Position numbers and translations under genes: made by a program
Shown here: piece after piece, positions 122-3,186 of the stretch
Numbering within the stretch: position 1 is the first letter of the stretch
Layout: each line of letters starts with the position of its first letter
Notes under the pieces: generated by a model
The model's database searches: none
Seen by the model: the letters and a program-made list of their open reading frames with translations, nothing else
Told to the model about the DNA's origin: nothing
DNA from: a virus
DNA: 17,837 nt
Strand: one strand, 5' to 3'
UHGV virus genome: UHGV-0106859

Positions 122-1045
122 TCAGTAGTTATGTACTGAAGGAGGCAATTCTTTATTCTTAAGTCTCATCCATGCGGAAAGATTCGTTGGTCCGTCTGGC
201 TCATTAATATCAACATCTCGTGTGTGGTTTATTAAAACGTCTCTCGCCATTCCGATAACATACGAGAATTCATGACCATAGTCGTAGCATCTGCCTGAAT
301 AGTTCGATTGAATTTGTTTTAGCGCCGGATACAGTTCGCGGAATAATGCCTGTGAGCGGTTGGCATAATCCCATAACCATACAAGGCTGTTTGCTTCTTT
401 TGCAGAAAGCTCGTTGGTTTTCTTCTCTTGTTTGCCGATGAACTCACCTTCAAGTGGAACTCGAGCTGCAAGTGATAGTGCTTCGGTAAACTGCTCCTCA
501 CTGATTTCTTTGTACGAACATCCAAAATGGGATTTCAGTGACGACCACATGGTGATCATCGCCTTAGCCTGTTTTTCCTTTGGCAGAGACTGACCGCGAC
601 TCATGACGAGTTGTTTAATGGCTTCCTGCTGTTCAGTGGTGATTTTACCCGGCAACGCCTTTTTAGCTTTGCGTGGGTTAACTACATGACCTTTAGTCCA
701 GTACTCGTATAGCACATCGTCACACTCTTCTTGATACTGGATTACATTGTCGCGGATTTCAGGGCGGACTTTGTTAGGGCTGATGGTTTGCAACCAGCCA
801 TTCAGTTTACGTAAAGCAAGGCAAATCATGTTCTGCACACCGCCAACTGAAGGTATTGCGATTTCCACAATACCTTTAGCAAATCTTTGTTTTAACTTTG
901 TAAACTGTGAAGCCCAATCCATACCCATTCCCTCAACGATAGGTTTCATTGGGGTGTACGGCTCACCGTTGTGATTAACAACATAAAGCTCTGCGCCGTG
1001 GAATGGTACATTGATAGTAGATACTGCTGTTGCTATACTTTTCAT
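122..1045 (-). CDS. ant: Antirepressor (Ant-like; N-terminal AntA/AntB-type domain)
   Basis: 307-aa ORF; N-terminal region (VPFHGAELYVVNHNGEPYTPMKPIVEGMGMDW...) resembles the phage antirepressor N-terminal domain; sits in the immI-like cluster downstream of an Arc-like gene and opposite mnt; ATG start with GGA about 8-11 nt upstream. Confidence 0.75.
   Translation of the reverse strand: MKSIATAVSTINVPFHGAELYVVNHNGEPYTPMKPIVEGMGMDWASQFTKLKQRFAKGIVEIAIPSVGGVQNMICLALRKLNGWLQTISPNKVRPEIRDNVIQYQEECDDVLYEYWTKGHVVNPRKAKKALPGKITTEQQEAIKQLVMSRGQSLPKEKQAKAMITMWSSLKSHFGCSYKEISEEQFTEALSLAARVPLEGEFIGKQEKKTNELSAKEANSLVWLWDYANRSQALFRELYPALKQIQSNYSGRCYDYGHEFSYVIGMARDVLINHTRDVDINEPDGPTNLSAWMRLKNKELPPSVHNY
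1011..1039 (+). promoter_or_regulatory. Near-consensus sigma70 promoter inside the 5' end of ant, reading antisense (Psar-like)
   Basis: TTGATA (1011-1016), 17-bp spacer, TATACT (1034-1039) on the plus strand; predicted start near 1046, immediately past the ant start codon and antisense to the ant ribosome-binding region. Confidence 0.45.
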
Positions 1046-1120
1046 GTCGTTAATTCCTATGCGTGGTTTTACGATACCGAAGCCCTGACTGTTACCGCAG
1101 TTGGGGCTTCAACTTTCTGC
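1046..1120 (+). ncRNA. Candidate sar-like small antisense RNA (about 70 nt) covering the ant translation-initiation region
   Basis: Starts downstream of the promoter at 1011-1039; contains a 13-bp stem with 6-nt loop at 1079-1110 that is stronger in the plus-strand RNA (two G-U pairs that become A-C mismatches on the other strand), followed by CUUUCU. Size and placement resemble the sar RNA of phage P22 immI. Confidence 0.35.
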
Positions 1121-1312
1121 TCTATCAGTTATATCTTTCCCTTCATATACTTCACCTATATTGCTAATGCTGGCAGAACATCCAAGATGCTTGTATCTTA
1201 TGATGTCCAACACGCAGTCACTACACAGCATCCGACCTGTTTCTTTAGAGTAAATGTATGTTTGATCAGCGTCTGATTCGCTAATGCCGCAGAAACAACA
1301 TTCTTTACTCAT
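1109..1312 (-). CDS. Small cysteine-rich protein (67 aa; CCxC near the N-terminus and CxxC at 30-33; possible zinc ribbon), hypothetical
   Basis: ORF start ATG overlaps the stop of the upstream Arc-like gene (ATGA overlap at 1309-1312), suggesting translational coupling; purine-rich SD (AGAGAGGGG) upstream; occupies the slot directly upstream of ant. Confidence 0.5.
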   Translation of the reverse strand: MSKECCFCGISESDADQTYIYSKETGRMLCSDCVLDIIRYKHLGCSASISNIGEVYEGKDITDRAES

Positions 1313-1449
1313 ACCGTTATCCCCTCTCTCTTCAGGCTGTCCATCACCCGTTTAATTACTTCTGCACTAAATGAGCGACACTCTTCCTTTGCTTTCTCTT
1401 CAAGGATTTTTTCTAACTTCTCTGGCATACGCAGTGTTTTTACCTTCAT
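1309..1449 (-). CDS. Arc-like ribbon-helix-helix repressor (46 aa), below the 60-aa cutoff of the supplied ORF track
   Basis: Hand-translated: MKVKTLRMPEKLEKILEEKAKEECRSFSAEVIKRVMDSLKREGITV; the C-terminal helix (RSFSAEVIKRVMDSLKREG) resembles P22 Arc (RSVNSEIYQRVMESFKKEG as recalled); GGAGG SD 6 nt upstream of the ATG at 1449; first gene of the minus-strand immI operon. Confidence 0.65.
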   Translation of the reverse strand: MKVKTLRMPEKLEKILEEKAKEECRSFSAEVIKRVMDSLKREGITV

Positions 1450-2100: not shown

Positions 2101-3108
2101 TTACTTGTCTGAATCATCCAGTTCGTCTGTTTTCACATCCTCAAACCTTGGATGCAGGCGATTCATTTTTGCAATAAAATCTGAATAGTCGTTAGATAGC
2201 TTCATAATCGTAACGGTTGATGACAGATGCTCTCTTAATTTTTGATATCCAATATTTGGCGTCAGCCCCTGAAACAACTTTGTACCTTTTGAAGCCTTTA
2301 CGTTCTGCTTTTTAAGCTCCTCAAGGATGTTTGGTGCCAATCGCTTGTAGACGATATCATTTGTCAAAACGCCAAAATACTGAGGGCGGAAGCGGGGATT
2401 TTCCGGCGGGTATTCTAAGCCCCTTAACCTGAAAAGCTCTTCATAATAATCAGCCGGAAATGTTGTAATATAAGGTTGAATTTCCTTTGCGACAAAGGCC
2501 TCGAGTATTTTGGCGAGCGCATCTTTTTCTCTATCTCGCTGGTACCCCGTCGCTTCATCAACAAGCGCTATTATTCCGACTTTAGCTAATGAGCGCACCA
2601 GAATTTCAGCTTTCTTGGCTGTCTCTAACTGGTTTGGCCTGGTGATAGCGCCTGCCTCTCTTGCCTTTAAATAAACATCGCAAACAAGAGGTATTATGGA
2701 TGCGTCATAACCTTCTTGGACGGAGCCAGTAATCGTCTTGTATTTAACCTTATTGATCACATCCATAACATCTTGATTTATATATTTTTTAAGGTTTGCA
2801 GCATCCATAAAAGCGGGCATATTGATCGCCCCCTCTTCTTGAGGTGCTCTACCCCCTCTTTGTGGTCGGCCAAATGCTTTAAAAACAGAAGCTTGTGATA
2901 TGATACGCCGTCCATTTTCGAGAACCGCGACATCTAATTCCGCATCACCGATCTTTAACTTTCCCTCATTCGCAGATACGGGCAATAAAGCTTTTTCTTT
3001 TTTTGCGGCAACAGCCTTTCTTGAGGATTCTTTTCTTTGCTCTGCTGTCATTTTTGCCGCGCGTGCCTTACCGCCTTTGGCCTTCCCACTAACATCATCA
3101 TTTTTCAT
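2101..3108 (-). CDS. Accessory (moron) protein of unknown function, about 335 aa, with a lysine/arginine-rich N-terminal tail; possibly a P63C-type phage domain (unverified)
   Basis: Long minus-strand ORF (track 2101-3168, but that start is a TTG inside an operator-like palindrome; first plausible ATGs at 3114/3108 with weak SD). AT-richer than the flanking structural genes. Lies between gene 16 and mnt, the slot where P22 carries sieA. Confidence 0.65.
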   Translation of the reverse strand: MKNDDVSGKAKGGKARAAKMTAEQRKESSRKAVAAKKEKALLPVSANEGKLKIGDAELDVAVLENGRRIISQASVFKAFGRPQRGGRAPQEEGAINMPAFMDAANLKKYINQDVMDVINKVKYKTITGSVQEGYDASIIPLVCDVYLKAREAGAITRPNQLETAKKAEILVRSLAKVGIIALVDEATGYQRDREKDALAKILEAFVAKEIQPYITTFPADYYEELFRLRGLEYPPENPRFRPQYFGVLTNDIVYKRLAPNILEELKKQNVKASKGTKLFQGLTPNIGYQKLREHLSSTVTIMKLSNDYSDFIAKMNRLHPRFEDVKTDELDDSDK

Positions 3109-3148
3109 GAGCATATCTCGTGTTGTGATTGATAAGTCAATCATACAC

Positions 3149-3186
3149 ATGCACGTTGTAACGTGCAATATTTAAATATGCACGTA
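3149..3186. promoter_or_regulatory. Operator-like palindrome cluster upstream of the accessory gene
   Basis: Perfect 18-bp palindrome TGCACGTT-GT-AACGTGCA (3150-3167), perfect 12-bp palindrome ATATTTAAATAT (3168-3179), and a third TGCACGT half-site (3179-3185); possible minus-strand -35 TTGCAA at 3194-3189. Confidence 0.5.

Follow-up and report, generated by a model that had tools for sequence, protein, structure and literature searches.

A probable sar antisense RNA gene at the ant start of a CUS-3-type, P22-like E. coli phage

We analyzed a stretch of 17,837 nucleotides from the virus genome UHGV-0106859 (here called the window) and found that positions 1046-1115 of the plus strand very probably constitute a functional sar gene of a CUS-3-type Lederbergvirus phage or prophage, acting as sar does in P22. 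An initial annotation had pointed to a sar-like RNA with the architecture of P22 sar. The architecture was borne out, and the element is supported as a homologue of P22 sar beyond merely being sar-like, since it combines a full-length match to the Rfam family RF00262 with 41 nucleotides of identity to P22 and the same geometry. The class is already known, characterised since 1987 (Liao et al. 1987; Wu et al. 1987; Schaefer and McClure 1997) and curated in Rfam, and the copy in the window is an ordinary one.

In P22, sar is an antisense RNA on the ant ribosome binding site and acts post-transcriptionally, blocking synthesis of the antirepressor Ant (PMC10732415; PMC2629481). Mnt and Arc control transcription alongside sar (PMC10732415; PMC2629481; PMC11016777). 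The RNA was detected by RNA-seq of P22 infection (PMC13397905).

The sar element and its immunity region

The window comes from a P22-like E. coli phage, of which it is the late-operon/"ant moron" part. Positions 924-1600 are 97.5% identical to phage CUS-3, and the rest of the window matches virion genes of P22-like coliphages. The immI gene set around sar was found to be complete, with ant, a gene of the arc type, a pair of mnt genes and divergent promoter-like sites. The target of regulation, ant (122-1045, minus strand), encodes an antirepressor of 307 amino acids (Pfam P22_AR_N, E = 3.2e-44; P22_AR_C, E = 5.7e-30) and has its ATG at 1045-1043. The first gene of the ant operon (1309-1449, minus strand) encodes an arc-like repressor of 46 amino acids (Pfam Arc PF03869, E = 2.9e-9), named "Arc family DNA-binding protein" by PGAP. 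Between these two lies a cysteine-rich open reading frame of 67 amino acids with a CxxC...CxxC arrangement (1109-1312, minus strand). On the plus strand two Mnt/Arc-family repressor genes follow each other in tandem, as two mnt genes are annotated in the CUS-3 record. The first (1549-1812) encodes 87 amino acids (Pfam Arc, E = 3.4e-10) and the second, of the P22 mnt type (1836-2087), encodes 83 amino acids (Pfam Arc, E = 3.9e-30; Repressor_Mnt, E = 7.2e-19). The C-terminal Repressor_Mnt domain was seen only in the second of the two.

Overlapping divergent promoter-like sites occupy positions 1480-1526: a Pant-like TTGACT-17-TACTAT on the minus strand (1508-1480) and a Pmnt-like TTGATA-17-TATCCT on the plus strand (1498-1526). 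The annotated Pant/Pmnt region of P22 has the same layout. An inverted repeat of 18 nucleotides (1484-1501 and 1505-1522, 78% complementary) lies amid the two sites and is a candidate operator. The region also contains two strong, G+C-rich hairpins, at 2077-2096 and 85-104, each with a T-run after it on the minus strand. The former lies between mnt and a convergent reading frame of 355 amino acids with a P63C domain (2101-3168, minus strand), and is terminator-like on both strands; the latter lies beyond the 3' end of ant.

The initial annotation had taken the gene upstream of ant to be the cysteine-rich reading frame "rather than arc". The reading frame does adjoin sar, but arc is not replaced at this locus, where positions 1309-1449 hold an Arc-family gene. 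The paper on the ε34 genome described CUS-3-type ant regions as being without arc and, hence, as regulated unlike that of P22 (PMC2629481); this published conclusion of arc-less, differently controlled regions does not hold.

RF00262 matched positions 1047-1114 on the plus strand only, over model positions 1-68 of 68, with 85.7 bits (E = 3.6e-17), which is twice the gathering score of 43. The posterior probability was given as * at all 68 model positions, and the pairs of stem I were compatible with the model. No other Rfam family reached threshold in the window. In the same test P22 sar (X01916) scored 97.8 bits, that of CUS-3 84.6 bits and that of phage TL-2011b 44.8 bits. A covariance model of our own (R1) placed sar at 1046-1115 with 83.2 bits and had no reverse-strand match in the window. 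In the literature we found no mention of RF00262.

The predicted transcript starts at G1046 or U1047 and has its 3' end at about 1114-1115, giving a length of 68-70 nucleotides, in keeping with the span of about 70 nucleotides that had been proposed as antisense to the ant ribosome binding site. It lies antisense to the interval between the ant ATG (1045) and the stop codon of the preceding reading frame (1109-1111), within the mnt/arc/ant region, and it is complementary to the ant leader throughout, including the Shine-Dalgarno sequence AGGAA (1058-1054). A stretch of 41 nucleotides (1076-1116) is identical to P22 sar (L002, 1046-1086), while the 5' 30 nucleotides differ and have about half of their bases in common with P22.

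P22 sar and the window copy share a promoter in the first ant codons with a TGnTATACT extended -10, a start adjoining the ant ATG, a length of about 69 nucleotides with two stem-loops, an identical 14-bp terminator hairpin with a tail identical to the sixth base, complementarity to the ant ribosome binding site, an end at the stop of the preceding gene, and the setting in an mnt/arc/ant immI region. They differ in stem-loop I, which reads GUCGU...ACGAU in the window and GUUGGU...ACUGAC in P22 and is one nucleotide longer in the window, and in the anti-Shine-Dalgarno sequence (UUCCU compared to CUCC). The gene at the sar terminator is the 67 amino acid cysteine-rich reading frame in the window, with the arc-like gene one further upstream, whereas it is arc in P22. 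The window sar overlaps the stop and last codon of the cysteine-rich reading frame by 6 nucleotides, while in P22 the arc stop lies just past the end of sar. The sar sequences of CUS-3 and of UTI89-type prophages are the same as that of the window except for one loop base (UACC compared to UCCC).

From P22 we infer that sar is expressed and represses translation of ant. Transcription from Psar (1011-1039), which lies within the first ant codons and points in the opposite direction, would yield an RNA of 68-70 nucleotides from the base adjoining the ant start, ending after a 14-bp hairpin with G·U pairs, where the preceding gene has its stop codon. Stem-loop I would display UUCCU, which is complementary to the Shine-Dalgarno sequence of ant. 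Pairing of sar with the arc-like/cysteine-rich/ant mRNA, made from the Pant-like promoter, would bury the ant ribosome binding site, and antirepressor synthesis would thereby be kept low, in addition to the repression that the Arc-like and Mnt proteins would exert on transcription. For P22, Liao et al. in 1987 reportedly gave a sar length of 68-69 nucleotides and found Psar to suffer interference from convergent transcription that starts at Pant.

The cysteine-rich cassette and the junction at the sar hairpin

Related loci were collected by an exact-pattern scan of IMG/VR for the outer arms of the terminal hairpin (hairpin II), which gave 120 loci. Once annotated loci were added, the different sar sequences numbered 67, and the promoter and stem-loop I were each represented by about 32 variants. 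As the loci were picked by a fixed outer hairpin II, conservation of that hairpin is partly ascertainment. One locus, L011, matched the hairpin pattern in a different context; it is not sar and was left out of the sample.

Each allele of ant and stem-loop I was found together with many right flanks, among them P22 arc, other arc genes, the cysteine-rich reading frame and several unrelated small reading frames, and the flank with the cysteine-rich reading frame occurs with five different ant alleles. The sar terminator (1079-1116) therefore joins modules that can be exchanged, an observation on a hairpin-selected sample and not a measured rate. It fits the CUS-3 record, in which sar, the arc-like gene and the cysteine-rich reading frame are all unannotated and the 482-bp interval between ant and mnt is labelled "bsq2; boundary sequence". 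Many of the inserted reading frames stop at a TGA inside ...CTTCAAC... (loci L006-L125).

The cysteine-rich reading frame is preceded by a good Shine-Dalgarno sequence, GAGGGG, its start overlaps the stop of the arc-like gene as ATGA (1309-1312), and the sar 3' end covers both its last codon and its TGA stop (1111-1109). In four related loci (L035, L072, L009 and L040) it is absent, leaving a clean gap of about 197 nucleotides, and the arc-like gene abuts the sar terminator. The reading frame is thus an inserted cassette in an otherwise P22-like arc-sar-ant order.

The encoded protein belongs to phrog_7150 (E = 3.4e-50), a family of unknown function. All four cysteines are invariant in divergent relatives (32-35% identity). 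A profile of three relatives had the N-terminal zinc-binding domain of ClpX as its best PDB match (E = 0.0055), and analogues at the same site matched Pfam zf-C4_ClpX (PF06689) with E-values of 4.1e-11 (L064), 0.0015 (L054) and 0.2 (L036). Pfam searched with the window protein alone gave no family at E ≤ 0.1, the UPF0167 match at E = 10 being insignificant, and a single-sequence AlphaFold2 model (pLDDT 56) was too poor for use. From these profile matches the protein looks like a stand-alone ClpX zinc-binding domain. In the literature we found nothing linking the ClpX zinc domain to antirepressor regions.

A word-indexed homologue search with the cysteine-rich protein returned only five near-identical clusters, one being a call of 112 amino acids that fuses Arc with the cysteine-rich reading frame, and an exhaustive phmmer search of 1.84 billion representatives returned 13 matches. 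Twelve of these were proteins of 501-2,382 amino acids with 4-9 matched stretches each and were read as compositional, cysteine-rich matches; one, P0014 with 68 amino acids, is a plausible relative. The copies are 97-100% similar, and dN/dS was uninformative. A protein of 112 amino acids on a 2.5-kb contig (P0001) has the Arc domain and the cysteine-rich reading frame fused in one gene call; a frameshift variant is one possible origin, and an artefact of gene calling where the two genes overlap as ATGA is another.

It is possible, although we regard it as doubtful, that the sar hairpin serves as a mosaic joint for ant alleles and for cargo genes between arc and ant, and that the cargo, here and in at least three divergent analogues at the equivalent site of other phages, is a stand-alone ClpX-type zinc domain forming a fourth component of immI. 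The cassette would then be co-transcribed with ant, with sar lying over its stop codon, and might for instance disturb the docking of ClpX substrates or adaptors and so alter the stability of immunity proteins.

O157:H7-type prophages beside nleL carry a sar allele with stem I GUCAAUA... and a different ant gene (L005, 2517-2863, from E. coli O157:H7 RIMD 0509939, as well as some 357 genomes of E. coli). The annotation of these copies lacks any RNA feature. The cysteine-rich reading frame next to them is disrupted by a 1-nucleotide indel after codon 7.

The exchange of flanks raises the question of whether the conserved hairpin and its surroundings are a mere recombination linker, or a relic, with no functional RNA here. 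The CUS-3 label covers the whole interval between ant and mnt, the ant and stem-loop I alleles are freely reassorted with the hairpin's right flank, and O157:H7-type copies reside in prophages where the neighbouring reading frame is frameshifted, all of which agrees with such a linker. It leaves unexplained, however, a near-consensus promoter at the exact P22 position that is kept through amino acid changes, the compensatory changes in stem I, and G·U pairs that favour the plus-strand RNA. We consider it very unlikely that the hairpin is a linker or relic to the exclusion of an RNA gene; the two roles are mutually compatible.

Folding and promoter of sar

The minimum-free-energy and centroid structures of sar agreed on two stem-loops. 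In the minimum-free-energy fold stem-loop I (1046-1075, plus strand) has a basal stem of G1046-U1050 with A1071-U1075 and further pairs of A1052-A1053 with U1068-U1069. Its upper part holds the anti-Shine-Dalgarno sequence UUCCU (1054-1058), opposite the ant Shine-Dalgarno sequence, which on the minus strand lies 8 nucleotides from the ATG. Stem-loop II (1079-1110, plus strand), identical in sequence to P22, is the predicted terminator hairpin, with arms at 1079-1092 and 1097-1110 and the loop UACC (1093-1096). A terminal hairpin of 13 bp had been proposed; the hairpin is there, but its stem is 14 bp long, three of the pairs being G·U.

The hairpin is followed by the tail AACUUUCU, which is U-poor and has no canonical U-run, and a generic terminator scan did not call hairpin II. 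The first six bases of the tail are the same as those after the P22 sar hairpin. We infer that termination takes place at hairpin II, at about 1114-1115.

Folding of both strands confirmed the proposal that the hairpin is more stable on the plus strand. Hairpin II alone had -23.4 kcal/mol on the plus strand (z -7.3; none of 200 shuffles was as good) and -18.0 kcal/mol on the minus strand (z -3.9), and the whole RNA of 70 nucleotides had -29.8 (z -5.5) compared to -20.2 for its complement (z -2.85). Since the minus-strand RNA folds too, the hairpin might instead work on the mRNA between the upstream reading frame and ant, in processing, stability or attenuation, with the plus-strand promoter being incidental. 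To judge from the title of Schaefer and McClure (1997), the target on P22 ant mRNA is indeed structured as well as sar. Such a target structure nevertheless belongs to the sar mechanism and is no alternative to it. On the minus strand, moreover, the three G·U pairs become C·A mismatches at a cost of 5.4 kcal/mol, a U-tract after the hairpin is absent, and model R1 gave at most 32 bits on reverse strands compared to 52-86 bits on sense strands. We find a role on the mRNA strand extremely unlikely.

Stem I was compared between the alleles of the sample. At least five pairs starting from nucleotide 1 were formed in 31 of the 32 distinct 5' parts, compared to 5.7% of shuffles, and at stem positions 3-5 several pair types occur across alleles. 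In a MAFFT alignment (A1) the 3' arm of stem I was one column off register between allele types; the alleles were therefore folded singly and re-aligned by the covariance model (hits at E = 1e-9). In that alignment, which is itself fitted to the structure, compensatory changes on both sides were found at four of seven helix 1 pairs, and the covariation score of 0.151 (0.075 in shuffles) was reached by none of 500 shuffles. Only 70% of the helix 1 cells were paired, owing to a register that varies between alleles. Conservation of stem I could also stem from the complementary structure in the ant leader, which is weaker there.

The promoter proposed within the first ant codons was found as described. 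Psar reads TTGATA-17-TATACT on the plus strand (1011-1039), with 10 of 12 positions fitting the consensus, and spans ant codons 3-12, reading away from ant, at a site equivalent to that of P22 Psar. Its -35 hexamer (1011-1016; five of six positions fitting the consensus) lies in ant codons 10-12, and the -10 hexamer (1034-1039), in codons 3-4 as in P22, is extended by a TG at 1031-1032, so that TGcTATACT (1031-1039) is the reverse reading of ant codons 3-5 (Ser-Ile-Ala). In both the window and P22, the -10 lies 7 nucleotides from the G adjoining the ant ATG. A -35 fitting at five of six positions occurs only in the ant allele family of the window and is the best among the relatives; most others fit at three to four, including P22 with GTGTTA (three of six).

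The 17.8-kb window has a single instance of the exact pattern, compared to an expectation of 0.00 from 200 shuffles. Looser promoter-like sites (at least 9 of 12 positions) are not enriched in positions 1-2400, where three were observed and 4.7 expected, and the weight of Psar accordingly lies in its position and conservation. Among the 32 promoter variants of related phages, 31 keep the -10 TA...T in register and 28 have the TG. Codon 4 of ant is NTA in 31 of the 32, whether it encodes Ile, Val or Leu, and Ile, which occurs there 21 times, is always encoded by ATA, a rare codon in E. coli. The constant A of codon 4 and the exclusive use of ATA for Ile indicate, at the level of sequence comparison, selection on the DNA as a promoter beyond that on the protein alone. 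It is hardly credible that the ant coding sequence contains the promoter by chance and that the hairpin shared with P22 is solely responsible for the Rfam match: the lack of enrichment of looser sites and a 5' part only about half common with P22 would agree with it, but such a chance origin accounts neither for the exact pattern and the -10 and TG kept over 32 variants in several amino acid contexts, nor for an RF00262 alignment that includes all 68 positions and a compatible stem I.

Related antisense RNAs and implications

The c4 antisense RNA of P1 and P7, like the CA RNA of N15, keeps an antirepressor gene in check through pairing on or close to the ribosome binding site. The c4 RNA and the CA RNA of N15 are processed from longer transcripts, with targets upstream, and both are unrelated to sar in sequence and structure. 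The CA RNA, a small phage RNA restraining an antirepressor gene, has been cited as analogous (PMC10732415). Lambda OOP and P22 sas are, like sar, short cis-antisense RNAs from lambdoid phages, each having a promoter and a terminator of its own, and they differ from sar in targets (cII/c1 and sieB), loci and folds. Both are listed beside sar among the small non-coding RNAs of P22 (PMC13397905).

Altogether, a CUS-3-type E. coli phage is confirmed to have a textbook antisense regulator, which is probably active; in itself this finding matters little. It does expose gaps in annotation: sar and the cysteine-rich reading frame are missing from RefSeq, despite matching DNA in 555 of 5,426 complete E. 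coli genomes, and these two together with the arc-like gene are missing from the CUS-3 record. The collected alleles represent a natural series of compensatory variants of sar and the ant leader. They also mark a cassette site with reading frames resembling the ClpX zinc finger, which is a modest lead.
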